Positions 36,942 through 47,141 of a DNA stretch of 64,000 nt are shown in pieces. This DNA comes from Chlamydiales bacterium (GTDB lineage Bacteria > Chlamydiota > Chlamydiia > Chlamydiales > CALTSX01), in the NCBI GenBank assembly GCA_051647685.1, contig JBOFEG010000028.1, positions 1,449 through 65,448 on the forward strand, in the 5' to 3' direction. The notes beneath the pieces are model-generated. The model saw only the letters and a list, made by a program, of their open reading frames with translations. It was not told where the DNA came from and did not search any database. Numbering within the stretch: the first letter of the stretch is position 1; every line of letters begins with the position of its first letter. The position numbers and the translations under genes are program-made.

Positions 36942-38753
36942 TTATTTTGAAACTACATGTAGAGGTTGGATGCGACTCGCGATAATGAATGCTGAATTCT
37001 TATCTAAATGCTGTTGCAATGCTTCTCGCGAAATTTTTGTCACACTCGTGTCGTTACATAAATACCAGGTGTTATTTCGCTTTACAGCTGCATAGTAATG
37101 GCCTAGAGTCTCGTCAAAAGGTTTGTTACCTATTTTATATCCAGAATGGAGTATCAAACCATTTAGCATATAGTCAGTACCGGCAAATAAAGTTTCGAGA
37201 GATATTCTTTGTGATTCAGCTTTGTCTATGAGGACATGTTTATAAGTATAGGTAAAGAGATCAGCAACTGATATGGGTACTCGGCCAATATCAATCGATA
37301 ATTTTTCTAATAAAAGATACAAGAATTGCTTACTGTCTTCTTGTGTGTCCCCCCAAACAGCAAATTCTTTACTTAACTTATTATGAATCTCTGCGCGGAT
37401 ATCTTGCATTTGATTGGTTAAATTTAGTGGGGCAAATCTTTTTTTCTTTCGATATGATTGAACTTCTTTAAGCAATTTGGGATTATTCTTAAGATTTTCT
37501 TTTATTTCTTCCGTGATTTCATGGCTTAATCCATGTTGTGCCGGATTTGCAAATTGCCTAATATCGGATTGTTCCAAAAAACTATTCTGATATAACTGAA
37601 AAGATTCAGCTATCTTAGGGAAATGTTTAGAGAACATTTCAGCATTTATATCATACCGTATGGGTGTATTACTCATAATTTGTAGGGCGGCGTTATACCA
37701 ACAATTTTGATTAGTATTTGCAATACCTATAGGTATCTCTGGTGATCTAACCTCTTGCGTTGTATAAGCTTCTTCAGGAAAAGGTTCAGAAGATAGTTCC
37801 ACATTTTCAAATTCATCTGTTAACTGATCATCTATAATGGTAGAATCACTGCTAGAGGAATCTACTGTAGTTTTAGAATCGCTGACAGATAGAGATTCTC
37901 TATTAGAAGACTCTAAAGGAAAAAACATAGATCGGTTCTGACAATCCAAAGCCTCTAATTGAAGGTCTCTCTGAGTTTTTAACTCGCAAGTTAGTTCTTC
38001 TTCATTTACTTCTTTTTCTTCTGTCTGGCTCTTTAGCTGTTCAATAAGGTGTAACTTTCTCTCTAGTTTTACTTTGATATAATCTCCATCTTGTAGAATC
38101 GATTTAATTTGATTCTTAGCTGCTTCGGTGAGATGTTTGTTTCTCGATAAGATAAGTTCGTGAATAAGAATATTTCTAGAGACATTGCCGTTTAGTTCTT
38201 GCAGTGCCTTTACAAAAGAATCTAGCTCTGGCTGCTGCAAAGTGAGATCCCTGTATAGCTTAGCATATTGATTGATGTTCTTTTCACTTTTATTATCCAA
38301 TTCATCTAGAGCTAAGACAGCTCTATTTGCCAGCTGGATTCCAAATTCATTGATTAAAGAAGGGAGTAATGTGTAACCAACATGGTCAGAAAGAGATTTT
38401 TTATCTCTTTCCTGTAGTATGGAGAGACCAATAATGTGCGTATTTAAAATAGAGCGGACTTGTTTTGTCTTTTCAAAAATGTTTTTCTCACCCTTCAACG
38501 CTTTGATTATATTGTCAGCATAACTTAGACGAGCTTCGTTATACGACTCGCTATTACTAACGCTATGACGAAAAGTATCAAGGAGCTGATACAATTTTTT
38601 TCCAGAGTAGGGCTGAACCAGAGGGAAGGAAAAAGCGTTACTCAGTAATTCGATAGTCTCAAAGGCGAGTCTATAAATTCGAAACCACGCATGAGCTAGC
38701 CATGAGTCATTGAAAGTCAGTGATGTAGAGGAAACTGGTATAGCGTTAGTCAT
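36942..38753 (-). CDS. eukaryote-like ubiquitin-specific protease (USP/UCH, C19) domain protein
   Basis: Cys box IGIANTNQNCWYNAALQIM (compare G.xN.GNTCYmNs.LQ) and His box GHYYAAVKRNNTWYLCNDTSVTKIS (compare GHY.a.vk....WY.fdD..V). The N-terminal 330 aa or so are coiled coil or unknown. Confidence 0.8.
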   Translation of the reverse strand: MTNAIPVSSTSLTFNDSWLAHAWFRIYRLAFETIELLSNAFSFPLVQPYSGKKLYQLLDTFRHSVSNSESYNEARLSYADNIIKALKGEKNIFEKTKQVRSILNTHIIGLSILQERDKKSLSDHVGYTLLPSLINEFGIQLANRAVLALDELDNKSEKNINQYAKLYRDLTLQQPELDSFVKALQELNGNVSRNILIHELILSRNKHLTEAAKNQIKSILQDGDYIKVKLERKLHLIEQLKSQTEEKEVNEEELTCELKTQRDLQLEALDCQNRSMFFPLESSNRESLSVSDSKTTVDSSSSDSTIIDDQLTDEFENVELSSEPFPEEAYTTQEVRSPEIPIGIANTNQNCWYNAALQIMSNTPIRYDINAEMFSKHFPKIAESFQLYQNSFLEQSDIRQFANPAQHGLSHEITEEIKENLKNNPKLLKEVQSYRKKKRFAPLNLTNQMQDIRAEIHNKLSKEFAVWGDTQEDSKQFLYLLLEKLSIDIGRVPISVADLFTYTYKHVLIDKAESQRISLETLFAGTDYMLNGLILHSGYKIGNKPFDETLGHYYAAVKRNNTWYLCNDTSVTKISREALQQHLDKNSAFIIASRIQPLHVVSK

Positions 38754-40667: not shown

Positions 40668-40835
40668 ATGCACAAGCCTATGAGAGGAAAAAAAGGGCAT
40701 CAACGCTCTGTACAAAAAAATCCCATGAAAAAGGGAGATCCACAAAAATCAACGGACTGGCAATCACAGTCTAAAAAGAAAAGAGGACCTAACGAACCTT
40801 GGCCGAACGATCCCTTTGATAAAAAGGACTTTTAG
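40668..40835 (+). CDS. small basic protein (55 aa), below the track cutoff
   Basis: ATG 40668 is preceded by GAGGA 7 nt upstream. The product reads MHKPMRGKKGHQRSVQKNPMKKGDPQKSTDWQSQSKKKRGPNEPWPNDPFDKKDF. Confidence 0.3.
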   Translation: MHKPMRGKKGHQRSVQKNPMKKGDPQKSTDWQSQSKKKRGPNEPWPNDPFDKKDF

Positions 40836-40850
40836 ATTGTAATGTTGACT

Positions 40851-41189
40851 TCAATTTCGGGAGAGCCATTCTATGATCGCTTGAGATTCATATAAAGGCT
40901 TTCCATCTATCAGTAGGCAAGGCACTTGCCTTTTCCCTCCTATCCGGATCAAATCTTGGATAGCGCGTTGGTCAGATTGAATATTTTTTAATTGAATTCC
41001 CTTAGCAGTAGTATTGATAGCTTTCAGCACTTTTGTGCAGTAGGGGCAAGAGGGTTTATAGAAAAGGATTAAATTATGAGATGATTTCATGGCTTCCTGC
41101 GTGTGTGTAGAGGGTGCATTGGACGCATAACTAGGTGACATAGAATAAGATAAAGGAAGAAAAGCCATTAGGACAGCTAAATAACGCAT
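40851..41189 (-). CDS. glutaredoxin-like protein with a signal peptide
   Basis: MRYLAVLMAFLPLSYSMSPSYA signal-like N-terminus, the CPYC active site and GGKRQVPCLLIDGKPL (the glutaredoxin pattern is TVP.vFI.G..iGG). Confidence 0.75.
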   Translation of the reverse strand: MRYLAVLMAFLPLSYSMSPSYASNAPSTHTQEAMKSSHNLILFYKPSCPYCTKVLKAINTTAKGIQLKNIQSDQRAIQDLIRIGGKRQVPCLLIDGKPLYESQAIIEWLSRN

Positions 41190-41555
41190 GTAAAATCTCC
41201 TTAATAATTCTTATAACCTGTGAATCATTATACCAAGTTCTCCAAAAGAAACAATAGAAAATTTTTCATAACAAAATATTTTTTGATAAGTTTCAATATT
41301 GATGAACTCATCATATCGCATTATTTTTTCTAATTATCTTGTTATAAAAGTTAATTTATACGTTTTTATAAAATGGATTTTTAATACAATTAAAATTGTT
41401 TTTCTCTATTAAAACATAATTAATTTTTAATAAAACTTAAATTTTTTTTTATTTTTTTGTTGAAATTTATTATATTAAAAATTGAATAGATAATTAAGTA
41501 ATTTAGGCTGATTAGTAAAAATTAATAATACAATCTCAAAACAGGGAGATATAAT

Positions 41556-42047
41556 ATGGGATCATTATGTTGTATGTGCTCTTCGCCTCACAAACGTAGA
41601 CGAAGACGAAAAGCTGCAAAAACAGTTTCTAGACATAGACATCACAGACGAAGAAGAAGAGCTAGAAAAGCTGTTACTGCACCTAGAAGACGAAGAAGAA
41701 CTTCTGCGACTACCACTACAAGAAGACGCAAAAGAAGAACATCAACTTCTAGCTCTACAGGAACAAAAAGACGCAAAAGAAGAACATCAACTTCTAGCTC
41801 TACAGGAACAAAAAGACGTAGAAGAAGAATATCAACTTCTAGCTCTACAGGAACAAGAAAACGCAGAAGAAAAAGTACAGGAACTCGCACCACAGCAAGA
41901 CGCACTAAACGAAGAAGAACATCAACTTCTAGCTCTACAGGAACAAGAAGACGTAGAAGAAGAACATCAAGTTCTACTGTAACAAGAAGAAAAAGACATT
42001 ACAAACCGAAGAAAGAGTCAATCATCTCTATGTTGCCTACACTGTAG
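41556..42047 (+). CDS. extreme Arg/Ser/Thr-rich tandem-repeat protein (163 aa)
   Basis: GGAG lies 8-9 nt upstream of the ATG. A strong terminator follows 20 nt after the stop. The N-terminus is MGSLCCMCS. The body consists of 15-aa units, KRRTSTSSSTGTKRR. Confidence 0.6.
   Translation: MGSLCCMCSSPHKRRRRRKAAKTVSRHRHHRRRRRARKAVTAPRRRRRTSATTTTRRRKRRTSTSSSTGTKRRKRRTSTSSSTGTKRRRRRISTSSSTGTRKRRRKSTGTRTTARRTKRRRTSTSSSTGTRRRRRRTSSSTVTRRKRHYKPKKESIISMLPTL
41721..41990 (+). repeat. 45-nt coding tandem repeat array
   Basis: The unit core ACATCAACTTCTAGCTCTACAGGAACA recurs at 41739, 41784, 41829 (one mismatch) and 41919. The spacing is 45, 45 and 90 nt, with a diverged unit in the 90-nt gap. Confidence 0.9.
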
Positions 42048-42064
42048 GATTCAATAGCGAATCG

Positions 42065-42697
42065 TTAGGAAATCGGATTTATACAATCCGATTTCCTTTT
42101 TTTTTTATCCCTATACTTTCTATATAACTCTTGCAATATATAACAAATCATTCCACTTGCCAGTATATCGCTCGTATAGTGATAGTTTAGTAAAATACGA
42201 CTACTGCTAAGGAATATAGGCAGTATGACCCAAGCTATTTGGAACTTTAGAAAATTGCGAAAGAGTGGAGTGAACAAACAAGTGGCTACAGCTGCATGTC
42301 CAGAAGGAAAAGAGTGGTAGTGATGATTTTTCATTACAAAGTAAAATCCATAGATACTATCCGTTAAGAGTTCTGGCCTCGCTCTTCCAAGCAGTATTTT
42401 CATACAATAGACAAGAGGCAGAGAAATAAGTAAGGAATAAACAATTTCGCGAGAGATGGAGAGAAGTTTATGACTTTTACGACTATATTTTGCAGTCAGA
42501 TAGACAATTGACCAAAATGCGATATGAAATGGTGGAGACAGGATCCGCGATACCCACTTTAAATAATTGCGTAAGGGATAAGACACTCCCATACAGAGTT
42601 TCGATATATAGGGGTCTATATAAAAAAAGCAAAGCAGACCGAGTCCGATCCCTAACGCAAGAAGATAGATCGATGTATTTTGGTATTTCTCTATCAT
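42065..42697 (-). CDS. PAP2-family lipid phosphatase
   Basis: The three PAP2 motifs are present: KILLGRARP, PSGHAA and SRILLNYHYTSD. Confidence 0.8.
   Translation of the reverse strand: MIEKYQNTSIYLLALGIGLGLLCFFYIDPYISKLCMGVSYPLRNYLKWVSRILSPPFHIAFWSIVYLTAKYSRKSHKLLSISREIVYSLLISLPLVYCMKILLGRARPELLTDSIYGFYFVMKNHHYHSFPSGHAAVATCLFTPLFRNFLKFQIAWVILPIFLSSSRILLNYHYTSDILASGMICYILQELYRKYRDKKKRKSDCINPIS
42068..42106 (+). terminator. strong Rho-independent terminator of the Arg-rich gene
   Basis: GGAAATCGGATT (42068-42079), loop TATAC, AATCCGATTTCC (42085-42096), then T10 (42097-42106). It overlaps the last codons of the convergent PAP2 gene. Confidence 0.8.
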
Positions 42698-43617
42698 AAT
42701 TGGTCAGTTGTCTTAAAATGGAGTTTAGCGATAGATCCCAGAGCTTCCCTGTTATGTAGCTGCAGGAATTGTTTGCCCGCAGCAATGACCGCTGCAGAAG
42801 CACCTTTAGGCAGATTTATATGATATTGCTGACTTAACTTTTCAATCCCTACTAGAAAAGCATTGCGCGCTAAAATAGAAGCTGCAGCGACTACAGGATC
42901 GCTCTCGCCCTTATGTCTTTGTACCAGTTGTACCGGTATTTTTTTACTAGCTACGGCATTCTCTACAATCGACACGTGAGCGAATTGATCGATGAAGGCG
43001 AGATCGCATCCGCTCAAGTTATATACATTTTCAATGGCTGTGGCATGCGCCCATCCCAGTAGAGAGTTTAGATTGCCAAATTTTTGATATAGGCGATTAT
43101 AGGTTGAGGGGGGGAGAGATACTATAGAGTGTTTGAACTCTTTTTGGAGCACAGTTGCCATTCGTCGGATAGCGGGATCGCTGAATTGTTTACTATCTCG
43201 AACTCCTTGCTTCAATAATTTACCGATATCTTCTGTACTGCAATAAATGGCAGCAGTACATAGAGGACCAAAAAAATCTCCCTTTCCCGCTTCATCGACC
43301 CCAATATGCGGCTTCATTTCTATATATTGCTCCGGATGAGAATAGGTAAGATTATGTAAGATTTCTGGTTCGATATAGTAGAGAATAAAATCATCAATAG
43401 CCTTTCCTTGAATCAGAAGTTTTCCGGATTCATACAGTGTACAGGAAACACCGGGTTTTTTAGCGGAAAAAATAGAGTGATCTGGACGCGTAAGAGTAAA
43501 ACCTTGTCCAATGAGATCCGCTCGGAGTTTATCTGCCAATTGCAAGTTAATCTGTGCGACAAAAGATTTAGAAGTCATACTAACGAGTGTAATAGAATCT
43601 ACCCTTTTCTTGAACAA
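42694..43617 (-). CDS. rnhC: ribonuclease HIII
   Basis: 307 aa. An N-terminal HIII-specific domain is followed by GVDEAGKGDFFGPL. It sits next to rodZ, as in Chlamydia. Confidence 0.85.
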   Translation of the reverse strand: MFKKRVDSITLVSMTSKSFVAQINLQLADKLRADLIGQGFTLTRPDHSIFSAKKPGVSCTLYESGKLLIQGKAIDDFILYYIEPEILHNLTYSHPEQYIEMKPHIGVDEAGKGDFFGPLCTAAIYCSTEDIGKLLKQGVRDSKQFSDPAIRRMATVLQKEFKHSIVSLPPSTYNRLYQKFGNLNSLLGWAHATAIENVYNLSGCDLAFIDQFAHVSIVENAVASKKIPVQLVQRHKGESDPVVAAASILARNAFLVGIEKLSQQYHINLPKGASAAVIAAGKQFLQLHNREALGSIAKLHFKTTDQL

Positions 43618-43693
43618 TTTCCGTCGATAATATACGCTCGAAGTAGCTGATCCTTGTTTTCAAGGATCAGCTACTTGGGATATAGAGGAATTT

Positions 43694-44104
43694 ATGGAAG
43701 AAGAAGTAAAAAAAGTCGGTCAATTGTTTAAAGGGACAAGGGAGGAAAAAAATTTAAGCTTAAAAGAGGTAGAAAATACCACTTCAATTCGAGTGAATTA
43801 TTTAGAGGCTATCGAAGAGGGAAGAGTAGAGAAGTTTTTATCTTCTGTATATGCGCTAGGTTTCATTCGGCAGTATGCTTTATTCTTGGGGATTGATATC
43901 GATACAGTGATACGCGATTATCCCCTAGCTTTTCAGATGCCAGTAGAGAGACATGATTTTGCCTATGGAATAGGAACACTTGAGGTGCGCGGTAGTTTAG
44001 GAGGAGGAGTTAAATGGTTGCCTAATTTATTATGGGCCATTCTATTTGCTGTAATCGTAGCGTGCGCTTGGTATTTAATGAAGTATTTGGAAATTATTAA
44101 ATAA
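43694..44104 (+). CDS. rodZ: RodZ-like HTH membrane protein
   Basis: An HTH region (VGQLFKGTREEKNLSLKEVENTTSIRVNYLEAIEEG) plus a C-terminal TM helix. Conserved rnhC neighbour. Confidence 0.65.
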   Translation: MEEEVKKVGQLFKGTREEKNLSLKEVENTTSIRVNYLEAIEEGRVEKFLSSVYALGFIRQYALFLGIDIDTVIRDYPLAFQMPVERHDFAYGIGTLEVRGSLGGGVKWLPNLLWAILFAVIVACAWYLMKYLEIIK

Positions 44105-44168
44105 CTTTTTCCTCGTATATTACCGAGGGAATCAAAGATTAACAATCTACTTGGGGATGTAGGGTGCT

Positions 44169-46190
44169 ATGGAAAAAAAATTACTCGGGGATTACAGCCT
44201 TATAAAACAGATCGGGAGCGGTCCGCTTGGAATGGTATATCTCGCAGAACATCGCTTTATTAAGAAACAATTTGCCATCAAAATTCTTCCCGAAGAACTG
44301 AGCTCCGATCGAAATTTTATCAAACGGTTTGAAAAGGAAGTTAAGGGGCTCGCTTCACTCGATCATCCAAACATAGTAAAAGTACATAATATCTCTGGAG
44401 CCGATGGTTGTTATTTTTTCGTAACCGATTGTATTGTAGATGCACTCGGCGAGACGACAAATATATCGCAATACATGAGCTACAAAAGAGGACTTCTTCC
44501 GGAAGAGGAGACGAGACTCATTCTTTCCCAAATCGCGTCAGCACTCGATTACGCGCACCAACGCAGCTACGAAGGCGCACCCTTTGTACATAGGGGAATT
44601 AAATTTAATAACATTTTAATTGGGAAGGGTCAAAAAGGACTTGAAGTCTACTTGTCTGATTTTGGACTTACGAAAGTGGTTGGCGAAAGACTTGTGCTTA
44701 CAAGGACCTATAAGACGCTTTCTCAGTGTTTGTCCATTCAGATAGGATCTCCGATTTTGGATCGCTCAGATGTCTATTCAGATGTGCCAGATAGCGTGTC
44801 TGTATCGAAGTTGCATCAATCCTTTTTACAAAATTATGCTTTTCTCTCTCCAGAACAAAAATTGATGAAATCGAGCGAAACTATGGATCCAATGGCCGAT
44901 GTATATGCTTTTGGAGTGCTCGCTTATTATCTCCTTATGGGAACCTTTCCAGAAGGTTTTTTCCCATTGCCCAATACCGTCCACAAACAATATCGATATA
45001 ATTGGGATCACATCATTTATCGATGTCTGCAATTTGATCCTAAAAAAAGACCGAGGTTACTAGGAGAGATTTTAGAAGAGAGCCTACATCTCCAAGAGCT
45101 TCCCAAGATTATTCAAAAACAAATGGACTATTGGAAAGATGGGAGCTCTGCAACAACTCTTTTTCCAGTTGCTAAAGACAATATTGCGACGCCGTTACCA
45201 TCCTCTACTCCTGTATCAACAGCTATTTTATCTCCCTCTAAAAATTCGAGTTCTACTATAGAAGCGCCGGGTATTGCTTCTTTTAGAGAAGAACTGAAGC
45301 CTATGCTAAAACCTACAGAAACACCTCTTAGAGAAGGATTGAAACCTTTATTGAAACCGACTGAGATCAATCGACCAACCTACGAAGCAGATCCTGGCGC
45401 TATGTTTCATACCGATCCGCTTGTCGCGCGGTACATTCCTAAAGAAACACAGGTAAAAGATATCGAGCCTTTATTAACCGATATGAGTATAATTTCTGGT
45501 GGAGAATTTTTTCGCGGTAGTGATGAGAATAGCAGGGATGAGAGACCGAGACATAAAGTATTTTTGTCCAGCTTTGCACTCGATATACATGCAGTAACTA
45601 ATGAACAATTTGTACTTTTTTTAGAGTCTATGGGCGCAGAAAAAGATGGTGCCAATAATGATATTATTCGACTTCGGGAATCACGCATTAAAAAAACTGC
45701 GGGAAAATATGTTATCGAATCTGGGTATGCGAAACATCCGGTAGTAGGAGTTTCTTGGTATGGTGCCGTTGCGTATGCAAAGTGGATTGGTAAAAGACTT
45801 CCCTTTGAATCGGAGTGGGAGGTCATTGCTCAAGGCAATTTGGCCAATGCTGTCTATCCAACCGGAGCTAATATTGAGCGCAGTCAAGCCAATTATTTTA
45901 GCGCTGATACGACAGCTGTCATGAGTTATCCACCCAATGCTTACGGTATTTATGATATTGCTGGCAATGTCTATGAATGGTGTCAGGATTGGTATGATTA
46001 TAATTATTACGAAACTTCGCTCCAAGAACCGGAAAATCCAAGGGGACCTATACAAGGGGTGTACCGAGTTCTACGAGGAGGATGTTGGAAAAGTCTTAAA
46101 GAAGATTTAAGATGTTCTCATCGACATAGAAATAATCCTGGAACTATGAATCGCACTTATGGCTTTCGGTGCGCGACCGATGTACTCTAA
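44169..46190 (+). CDS. pkn1: Ser/Thr protein kinase with a C-terminal FGE-sulfatase (SUMF1) domain, Pkn1-type
   Basis: Kinase motifs GSGPLGMVYLA, AIK, HRGIKFNNIL and DFG. The C-terminal region reads GGEFFRGSDE...RPRHKVFLSSFALDIHAVTNEQF...GNVYEWCQDWY...RVLRGG. Confidence 0.85.
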   Translation: MEKKLLGDYSLIKQIGSGPLGMVYLAEHRFIKKQFAIKILPEELSSDRNFIKRFEKEVKGLASLDHPNIVKVHNISGADGCYFFVTDCIVDALGETTNISQYMSYKRGLLPEEETRLILSQIASALDYAHQRSYEGAPFVHRGIKFNNILIGKGQKGLEVYLSDFGLTKVVGERLVLTRTYKTLSQCLSIQIGSPILDRSDVYSDVPDSVSVSKLHQSFLQNYAFLSPEQKLMKSSETMDPMADVYAFGVLAYYLLMGTFPEGFFPLPNTVHKQYRYNWDHIIYRCLQFDPKKRPRLLGEILEESLHLQELPKIIQKQMDYWKDGSSATTLFPVAKDNIATPLPSSTPVSTAILSPSKNSSSTIEAPGIASFREELKPMLKPTETPLREGLKPLLKPTEINRPTYEADPGAMFHTDPLVARYIPKETQVKDIEPLLTDMSIISGGEFFRGSDENSRDERPRHKVFLSSFALDIHAVTNEQFVLFLESMGAEKDGANNDIIRLRESRIKKTAGKYVIESGYAKHPVVGVSWYGAVAYAKWIGKRLPFESEWEVIAQGNLANAVYPTGANIERSQANYFSADTTAVMSYPPNAYGIYDIAGNVYEWCQDWYDYNYYETSLQEPENPRGPIQGVYRVLRGGCWKSLKEDLRCSHRHRNNPGTMNRTYGFRCATDVL

Positions 46191-46217
46191 AACTAAAATC
46201 GTTTTCCCTATAAAATT

Positions 46218-47141
46218 ATGAAATTGTATCTCTCATCACCCAGAGGCTTTTGTGCCGGAGTTATTCGAGCTATTCAAACAGTAGAATTGGCTCTTGTCAA
46301 ATGGGGGGCTCCTATTTATGTCAAACATCAGATTGTTCATAACCGATATGTAGTGGATGGGTTGGAGCAAAAAGGGGCTATCTTTGTCGAAGATCTTACA
46401 GCTGTTCCACGGGGAAGCTATCTGATCTATTCCGCTCATGGAGTATCTCCAGAAGTACGCGCAATAGCTAAAGAGAGGGAGCTCAAAGAAATCGATGCAA
46501 CTTGTGGTCTGGTCACACGAGTCCATTCCGCTGCTAAGCGATTTGCTGCAAAAAATTACCATATTATTTTAATTGGACATAGAAACCACGTTGAAGTACA
46601 GGGAACCGCTGGCGAAGTTCTCGGGAATGTAACTATTATTGAATCTGTGGCAGAAGTCGACAAACTTACCTTTTCTCCCGAGCAAAAGTTATTTTATCTT
46701 ACCCAAACCACGTTAAGTCTGATCGATGTCGAAGAAATTGTTTTTGCTCTCCGGCAAAAATACCCATCTGTTGACACTCTTCCTAGCTCATCTATTTGTT
46801 ATGCAACTACCAATAGGCAACTAGCGCTCCAACAAATTGTAGAAAAATCACAGATTATTATTGTAGTAGGGGATAAGTTAAGTTCTAATTCTAACCGCTT
46901 ACGGGAACTTGGAGAAAAAGCGGGCGTTCCTTCTTATCTTATTAATAGTCCAGGAGAAATTAATCCAGAGTGGCTGCTCAATGTAGAATCGATTGGACTG
47001 ACTGCTGGCGCGTCCACACCCGAGTCTATTGTCCAAAATTGCATCGCGCGACTCGAAGAACTCGGTGTCAAAGAGACAGAGGAAATTTCCTTTGCAACTG
47101 AAAATGTCCTCTTTCAATTGCCTAAAGAAGTTACAGTATGA
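46218..47141 (+). CDS. ispH: 4-hydroxy-3-methylbut-2-enyl diphosphate reductase
   Basis: PRGFCAGVIRAI, SAHGVSP, a conserved Cys at ATCGLV and further IspH blocks. Confidence 0.95.
   Translation: MKLYLSSPRGFCAGVIRAIQTVELALVKWGAPIYVKHQIVHNRYVVDGLEQKGAIFVEDLTAVPRGSYLIYSAHGVSPEVRAIAKERELKEIDATCGLVTRVHSAAKRFAAKNYHIILIGHRNHVEVQGTAGEVLGNVTIIESVAEVDKLTFSPEQKLFYLTQTTLSLIDVEEIVFALRQKYPSVDTLPSSSICYATTNRQLALQQIVEKSQIIIVVGDKLSSNSNRLRELGEKAGVPSYLINSPGEINPEWLLNVESIGLTAGASTPESIVQNCIARLEELGVKETEEISFATENVLFQLPKEVTV

Follow-up and report, generated by a model that had tools for sequence, protein, structure and literature searches.

The 64-kb stretch of the Chlamydiales contig JBOFEG010000028.1 analyzed here (hereafter, the window) contains a short gene for an extremely basic protein, flanked on one side by a divergently transcribed gene for a glutaredoxin-like protein and on the other side by a convergently transcribed gene for a PAP2-family phosphatase. 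The contig is metagenome-assembled, and the neighboring proteins have been deposited as MGL4348593.1 and MGL4348597.1. Judging from the sequences of this gene and of its counterparts in related assemblies, it probably encodes a disordered polycation, an Arg-rich, protamine-like member of a fast-evolving and lineage-restricted family of the Hc2/HctB type. The best reading of the window protein is that it would be a Lys-to-Arg derivative of an Hc2/HctB-type nucleoid protein that has gained a CxxC...HxxH block. The locus comprises the following features (window positions):

41556-42047, plus strand: coding sequence of the 163-amino-acid (aa) Arg/Ser/Thr-rich basic protein, from the list of open reading frames (ORFs), with an ATG start
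41190-41555, plus strand: AT-rich intergenic stretch separating the basic-protein gene from the divergent glutaredoxin-like gene, from composition and sequence
41443-41485, plus strand: upstream element, a T-run followed by TTGAAATTTATTATATTAAAAATTGA (core at 41460-41485), recognized by its exact conservation across lineages
41532-41549, plus strand: conserved 5' untranslated region and ribosome-binding site AATCTCAAAACAGGGAGA, from alignment (GGGAG at 41544-41548)
41568-41579, plus strand: N-terminal Cys cluster C5-C6-M7-C8, from alignment; all Arg-type orthologs share its CxxC core
41586-41675, plus strand: conserved basic block, residues 11 to 40, with KTVSR, H27/H30, and RRRRARKAV, from alignments; predicted helix
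41718-41997, plus strand: tandem array of 45-nt (15-aa) units with the approximate consensus KRRKRRTSTSSSTGT, from Tandem Repeats Finder
42021-42044, plus strand: conserved hydrophobic C-terminal motif IISMLPTL, seen as I[IM]S[MI]LP[TK]L in all Arg-type orthologs and as AMLPTM in the Lys-rich protein of locus L082
42067-42107, plus strand: intrinsic terminator with a 13-bp stem (42067-42097), a 5-nt loop, and T10; it extends over the final codons of the convergent PAP2 gene
40851-41189, minus strand: neighboring gene for a glutaredoxin-like protein with an N-terminal hydrophobic leader (Pfam Glutaredoxin/GST_N)
42065-42697, minus strand: neighboring gene for a PAP2-family phosphatase, convergent with the basic-protein gene (Pfam PAP2)

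Arginine accounts for 31% of the residues of the window protein, followed by Thr (19%), Ser (17%), Lys (9%), and Ala (4%); taken together, Arg and Lys make up 40% and Ser and Thr 36% of the sequence, there is a single acidic residue (Glu), and the net charge is about +65. The Arg residues come in runs of 3 to 6. The array found by Tandem Repeats Finder has a period of 45 nt, 6.2 copies, and 76% matches, with an exact 24-nt core common to four of the copies. The 45-nt tandem units and the Arg/Ser/Thr-rich composition described in the original prediction are confirmed. In a single-sequence AlphaFold2 model, residues 11 to 40 form a helix with predicted local distance difference test (pLDDT) scores of 84 to 93, and the remainder of the chain scores below 50 to 60; the model predicts that the protein is intrinsically disordered outside this basic helix. 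The possibility of a lipoprotein or of a signal peptide was rejected, as MGSLCCMCSSPHK has, on inspection, neither a hydrophobic leader nor a lipobox.

Orthologous loci were retrieved from related assemblies via the neighboring rnhC and rodZ-like genes. The other full-length Arg-type orthologs are a 137-aa protein (loci L171, L081, and others), identical in at least 6 independent contigs, a 136-aa protein (L172), and a 167-aa protein (L163); C-terminal fragments of the gene were found in six contigs that end within the repeat. L163 represents one of the two nearest sister lineages: its RnhC is 80% identical to that of the window (79% in the L081 lineage), and its C-terminal tail, PKKESIISMLPTL, is identical to that of the window protein. 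The frame, the ribosome-binding site, the position of the ATG, and the terminator stem are retained across the Arg-type orthologs. Invariant in all four Arg-type proteins are C5, M7, C8, H27, and H30, plus RRxRARK.V; the CxxC motif (CWMC in L163) is followed 14 to 18 residues further on by His-x(1-2)-His, and the protein of the 137-aa lineage contains 8 Cys residues. Among the Arg-type proteins, the central region differs in sequence and in repeat period (45 nt in the window, 15 nt in L171, and 87/42 nt in L163), although its composition is maintained; the array of L082 has a 45-nt period. Six independent short-read contigs stop inside the Arg/Ser/Thr array (L161, positions 1 to 137; L162, 1 to 85; L164 to L166, 1 to 181; and L169, 1 to 178). 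Since the contigs break within the array, the copy number of close strains is unreadable from these assemblies.

Two loci with lower RnhC identity to the window, L082 (58%) and L180 (54%), carry Lys-rich genes instead. In the L082 protein (124 aa; 27% Lys, 16% Arg, 23% Thr, and 13% Ala), a 45-nt unit (AKRKPVRKAAAKKTT) recurs 3.5 times and the C-terminus is AMLPTM, whereas the L180 protein consists of 113 aa, including 36% Lys, 20% Ser, 19% Thr, and 12% Ala. In all lineages, L082 and L180 among them, the basic-protein gene and the PAP2 gene converge, and the full order of glutaredoxin-like gene, basic-protein gene, and convergent PAP2 gene recurs in L171 to L173 and in L082. The L082 neighbors are 38% (PAP2) and 44% (glutaredoxin-like protein) identical to those of the window, with PAP2 identities of 38 to 40% across L082 and L180. 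A short N-proximal motif reads AKKTVSR in L180, AKKTVTR in L082, AAKTVSR in the window, and TKKVSR in L163, and the C-terminal MLPT[LM] is common to the window and L082. Because of the same neighbors, the same 26-nt upstream block (discussed below), the same 5' untranslated region with its ribosome-binding site, and the KTVSR motif, the window gene can be regarded as the positional ortholog of the Lys-rich genes of L082 and L180. Across the lineages, Lys gives way to Arg in steps: the percentages of Arg and Lys are 6 and 36 in L180, 16 and 27 in L082, and 31 to 34 and 8 to 10 in the window clade; the main Arg codon is AGA, which is one transition away from AAA.

Both Lys-type proteins match the Pfam domain PF07382 (HC2, “histone H1-like nucleoprotein”), with E values of 5.7e-7 for L082 and 6.4e-7 for L180. 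Both also match the NCBIfam models NF038052 (Hc2) and NF038053 (H1-like, Burkholderia type), the latter weakly (2e-5 and 6.5e-6, respectively). None of 10 composition-matched shuffles produced a Pfam match at an E value of ≤10; the HC2 matches of the Lys-type proteins depend on the order of the residues, beyond composition. The proposal, made at the outset, that the gene could encode a protamine-like or Hc2-like protein is therefore supported by positional orthology in combination with the order-dependent HC2 match of the Lys-rich orthologs.

Several observations weigh against the derivation of the window protein from Hc2. The HC2 scores of L082 and L180 are about 30 bits, compared with the Pfam gathering score of 40. 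The window protein does not match PF07382 even at an E value of ≤10, nor does it match any Hc2 model or any Pfam or NCBIfam family, and an hhalign comparison of the Arg-type with the Lys-type profiles was not significant (probability, 0.6%). Because the HC2 profile and hhalign both fail, the window protein is not filed here as a member of PF07382, and descent from an Hc2-like ancestor is suggested by synteny, the regulatory block, and short motifs, without overall similarity. The analysis covered 64 kb of the genome, and a separate canonical hctB gene may be present elsewhere in it. Finally, the N-terminal sequence MGS[LA]CCMCS is common to the window and the 137/136-aa lineage, so that a function other than cross-linking is conceivable for this segment.

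The resemblance to Hc2 is nevertheless broad. Hc2 is a late-expressed protein of variable size that binds both DNA and RNA and in which conserved flanks enclose a repetitive core (PMC2848022). Like Hc2, the window protein is a small, very basic, nearly acid-free, disordered chlamydial protein encoded by a stand-alone gene; a repetitive core, conserved flanks, and a lineage-variable repeat architecture are all found in its family, and its locus is orthologous to the genes of L082 and L180 that match the HC2 profile. It differs in having Arg/Ser/Thr-rich 15-aa repeats, whereas those of Hc2 are Lys/Ala-rich pentamers, and in the N-terminal CxxC...HxxH block and the MLPTL tail of the window-type proteins. 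The repeat structure of Hc2 has been described as vaguer in Protochlamydia (PMC2848022), and hctB, unlike hctA, has been reported not to be conserved in environmental chlamydiae (bioRxiv 10.1101/2024.11.28.625222). Such poor conservation makes a divergent and badly annotated analogue plausible.

The ratio of nonsynonymous to synonymous differences per site (pN/pS) in the arginine frame is 0.37 for L171/L172, 0.54 for window/L163, and 0.56 for window/L171, compared with 0.64 to 1.38 overall in the other two forward frames (0.64 and 1.38 for L171/L172). Between two near-identical strains, all differences in the final 16 codons are synonymous. Ser9 is preserved across a switch between TCT and AGT codons, and the C-terminal Leu and Ile residues are preserved via synonymous codons, such as TTG/CTA and CTG/CTT. 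The pN/pS values, the synonymous-only changes in the tail, and the retention of the frame in the orthologs show that the gene is protein-coding and under purifying selection, which is strongest at both termini. In this purine-rich DNA, the +1 frame is also open (41557-41980, about 140 codons); it would yield an acidic, E/L/Q-rich repeat and shows no purifying selection. It was rejected as a coding sequence, having no ATG, GTG, or TTG start, being broken in some orthologs, and showing pN/pS of 0.64 to 1.17; its openness is probably a by-product of the AGA/GAA/AAG periodicity. An antisense ORF of 87 codons was also rejected, as the conserved ribosome-binding site, ATG, and terminator belong to the plus strand only.

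The signals that surround the gene were largely described beforehand, and the 163-aa ORF, its ribosome-binding site, the AT-rich spacer, and the terminator were all found, the terminator stem being measured as 13 bp. The 366-nt spacer (41190-41555) has a G+C content of about 20%, versus 38% for the whole window, and includes a weak 21-nt AT repeat at 41378-41449. The GGGAG sequence is separated from the ATG of the basic-protein gene by 7 nt, and the leader ATCTCAA..CAGGGAGA is present in four of the four lineages aligned. Terminator-like sites in the region number 5, versus 0.9 expected. The terminator stem is identical in L081, L163, and L172, with a differing loop; L082 has a different hairpin followed by a T-run at the equivalent position, and in both the window and L082 the terminator lies directly 3' of the stop codon. 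The combination of an invariant stem and a varying loop suggests selection on the RNA hairpin. The hairpin and T10 lie inside the final ~14 codons of the convergent PAP2 gene, where the variable loop alters the encoded residues (CI versus LF). With its own upstream element, ribosome-binding site, terminator, and selected frame, the view of this locus as a real, independently transcribed gene is borne out.

The most strictly conserved part of the upstream region is the 26-nt core TTGAAATTTATTATATTAAAAATTGA, which is exactly the same in the window, L082, L171 to L173, L177, and L180 and always lies 59 to 70 nt 5' of the ATG. No copy at any other place was found in the window (with up to 3 mismatches) or in 182 loci (exact match), ~1.9 Mb in total. 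This block is a strong candidate for a promoter or an operator/regulator site. No sigma-70-type promoter was called on the plus strand, and the block did not fit the sigma-28 or sigma-54 consensus by eye. Its likeness to published Euo sites (PMC4989314) was within chance for AT-rich DNA, and no claim is made of it. Links of hctB with sigma-28 and EUO have been described for the Chlamydiaceae, whereas environmental chlamydiae lack sigma-28 (PMC4652624), so the regulation of the window gene must differ from that of the Chlamydiaceae hctB. The invariant element can serve as a handle for finding further members of the family and as an entry to late-gene control in chlamydiae that lack sigma-28.

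If the protein indeed functions in the manner of Hc2, it would be made when replicating cells turn into the infectious, dormant form. Its Arg clusters would bind the phosphates of DNA (and RNA), neutralize their charge, and compact the nucleoid, and transcription and translation would be silenced, as they are by Hc2. The Ser/Thr blocks might be spacers, perhaps with a second role as phosphorylation switches. The condensed state could be locked, as it is in mammalian protamines, by disulfide or zinc cross-links formed by the CxxC motif and the His pair, together with the extra Cys residues of the 137-aa lineage, and the hydrophobic C-terminal tail could allow the protein to associate with itself or could mark it for degradation at germination. 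A more ambitious version of this scheme, offered here tentatively, is that of a “bacterial protamine”: a stepwise change from a Lys-rich H1/Hc2-like to an Arg/Ser/Thr-rich protein within one environmental clade, with a zinc or disulfide CxxC...HxxH lock and phosphorylatable spacers, might have produced redox- and phosphorylation-controlled condensation in convergence with the H1-to-protamine transition of animals.

The window protein resembles animal protamines P1 and P2 in its clusters of Arg with Ser/Thr, the near absence of acidic residues, its Cys or Cys/His content, and rapid evolution with conserved composition. The Cys and His residues of protamine P2 bind zinc. Counterparts of such cross-link sites might be C5, C8, H27, and H30, which are invariant in the four Arg-type proteins, whereas both Lys-type relatives lack Cys. 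It has been proposed that protamines arose from an H1-like protein rich in Lys (Lewis et al. 2004, cited in PMC9917458), an ancestry that parallels the Lys-to-Arg gradient of the window family. In contrast to protamines, the window protein is bacterial, has no sequence homology to them, and contains 31% Arg (typical protamines have more) and tandem 15-aa repeats. Another parallel is found in Coxiella burnetii, also an obligate intracellular bacterium with a biphasic cycle, whose ScvA protein is Arg-rich. ScvA and Hq1, two small and basic proteins that bind DNA, are enriched in the small-cell variant, which is the dormant form (PMC4766238). In contrast to the window protein, they belong to another phylum, and their sequences are unrelated to it; ScvA, of only ~30 aa, has no repeats. 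The H1-like proteins of Burkholderia and Bordetella (NF038053) are Lys/Ala-repeat nucleoid proteins that L082 and L180 match weakly; the window protein has no match to this model and differs in composition and taxon.

An alternative, raised together with the Hc2-like one, is that the gene encodes a secreted type III effector that would be myristoylated at Gly2 and palmitoylated at Cys5, Cys6, and Cys8 by the host, directed to membranes or, by its Arg runs, to the nucleus/nucleolus, and phosphorylated at RRxS/T sites by host kinases. MGxxC acylation motifs occur in the Pseudomonas syringae effectors AvrPto, HopF2, and AvrRpm1, and the palmitoylation site of GAP-43 is LCCM/MLCCM; the MGSLCCM of the window protein resembles these, on inspection, in the Gly2 pattern and the adjacent Cys residues. 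The conservation of MGS[LA]CCMCS in a lineage whose RnhC is only 79% identical, the absence of a signal peptide, and the presence of a type III system in chlamydiae would suit an effector. The N-terminus does fit the PROSITE myristoylation pattern, as had been pointed out, and satisfies it on inspection; however, this pattern is permissive, since an estimated ~16% of Gly2 proteins would fit it at the amino acid frequencies of the window. Moreover, at the equivalent ATG, and despite the common ribosome-binding site and the identical C-terminal tail, L163 starts with MRRTSRLCWMC, in which Gly2 and the CC pair are replaced, and the Lys-type positional orthologs start with MKRRTK (L082) and MAKKRK (L180) and are devoid of Cys. 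The features common to every Arg-type protein are CxxC and the two His residues, and Gly2 is not among them. With Gly2 missing in L163 and in the Lys-type proteins, host acylation, as judged by these orthologs, cannot be the function that the family has conserved; it may be a lineage-specific addition. The predicted RRx[ST] kinase sites are present and mildly enriched in the window protein (10, versus 5.6 ± 2.1 in composition-preserving shuffles, a fraction of 0.03 of which reached 10) but not in the L163 ortholog (7 versus 6.4), and they are largely a by-product of Arg runs adjoining Ser/Thr runs. The family also has no effector domain, and the rest of the protein is a polycation of the nucleic acid-binding type which, with a charge of +65, would bind bacterial nucleic acids once made; the locus, finally, appears to descend from Hc2-like genes. 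An effector might be a neofunctionalized descendant of such a gene, and the host-lipidated and phosphorylated effector, weakened by the loss of Gly2 and CC in L163 and their absence in the Lys-type relatives, is now an unlikely explanation.

Similarly improbable is the proposal that the protein is mainly an RNA- or ribosome-binding polycation, acting as a translational silencer or an RNA chaperone in dormancy rather than as a DNA condenser. Disordered Arg-rich segments bind RNA avidly, and the composition speaks for this role in the same way as it does for nucleoid condensation. For Hc2 itself, a higher affinity for RNA than that of Hc1 and a more efficient repression of translation have been reported (PMC2848022). 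However, the sequence does not separate RNA binding from DNA binding, and the proposal overlaps with the Hc2-type explanation, as Hc2 does both. The least probable option is some other lineage-specific role for a polycation, such as binding to the envelope or to polyanions or a toxic or antimicrobial peptide-like activity, or else a rapidly decaying, unimportant gene. The limitation of the family to a narrow clade, the very fast turnover of its central region, and the lack of homologs in the databases searched could be taken that way, but purifying selection on the frame and the termini, a regulatory block that is invariant over deep divergence, the absence of a signal peptide, and the identity of the 137-aa allele in at least 6 independent contigs weigh against it. 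An Arg-rich member of an Hc2/HctB-type family thus remains the preferred interpretation.

Word-seeded searches with the ORF alone and with a two-sequence profile found no relative, and neither did an exhaustive HMMER scan of 1.84 billion representatives. The only database match (P0001) was a FimV-like protein with an unrelated TGTRRRRGRDGADAD repeat and was rejected. An exact look-up of six family proteins in a collection of 15 billion proteins found none of them. The search for homologs with low-complexity filtering switched off, which had been called for earlier, was run with tblastn, alongside motif scans, over 80 GTDB loci around rnhC and found none; in those genomes, the synteny breaks downstream of rnhC. 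These negative searches weigh little because the composition correction of HMMER hides even the ortholog from the lineage with 79% RnhC identity: in a local test, 66 bits were removed from the L081-lineage ortholog as compositional bias, leaving E = 0.027 at that database size. Furthermore, in several assemblies, the automatic gene call at the locus is a hydrophobic antisense ORF of 103 to 138 aa. Such calls, all on the minus strand, are as follows:

L172, 4031-4342, minus strand: antisense call
L173, 2855-3169, minus strand: antisense call
L174, 78-392, minus strand: antisense call
L175, 142-456, minus strand: antisense call
L177, 189-503, minus strand: antisense call
L180, 6100-6516, minus strand: antisense call

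The basic-protein family is effectively unannotated. The compaction of the chromosome has a central place in the developmental cycle of chlamydiae, although the conservation of hctB beyond the Chlamydiaceae is considered poor (bioRxiv 10.1101/2024.11.28.625222). On the interpretation preferred here, at least one environmental clade would keep an Hc2-type gene that is overlooked by standard pipelines, such genes of environmental chlamydiae would be systematically missed, and the locus would document a Lys-to-Arg shift mirroring the evolution of animal protamines.

Several observations concern the surroundings of the locus. The genes for RnhC, a RodZ-like HTH protein, a Ser/Thr kinase with an FGE-sulfatase domain, and IspH (LytB), at 42694-47141 of the window, are syntenic in most of the Chlamydiota loci fetched (~60 related); synteny is lost directly downstream of rnhC, and the cassette of the PAP2, basic-protein, and glutaredoxin-like genes is found there only in this clade. 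Scans of the window for Rfam families and tRNAs gave no matches. Beside the glutaredoxin-like gene, a 55-aa hydrophilic ORF (40668-40835, plus strand; MHKPMRGKKGHQRS...DPFDKKDF) is kept in L171 to L173 and has a 58-aa form in L082 (7919-8095). The 603-aa protein encoded at 36942-38753 (minus strand) has orthologs in L171 and L172 that weakly match the Pfam family UCH (ubiquitin C-terminal hydrolase) and may be a candidate eukaryote-like deubiquitinase effector. In an unrelated chlamydial metagenome-assembled genome (L067, ~4887, minus strand), a 119-aa ORF begins with MGNVCCKVEQ, another case of Gly2 with a CC pair and a possible acylated-effector candidate. At the contig end of L081 (6816-6865), a Nextera adapter with the transposase mosaic end (TCGTCGGCAGCGTCAGATGTGTATAAGAGACAG) is fused to the promoter region, which is an assembly artifact. 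The 137-aa allele and its locus are also found in L174 and L177 (ENA ERZ939900 / ERZ939750), labeled as human skin metagenome (PRJNA46333), and the locus is identical in several further ENA assemblies; evidently, the chlamydia carrying this allele is either widespread or a recurrent contaminant or associate.

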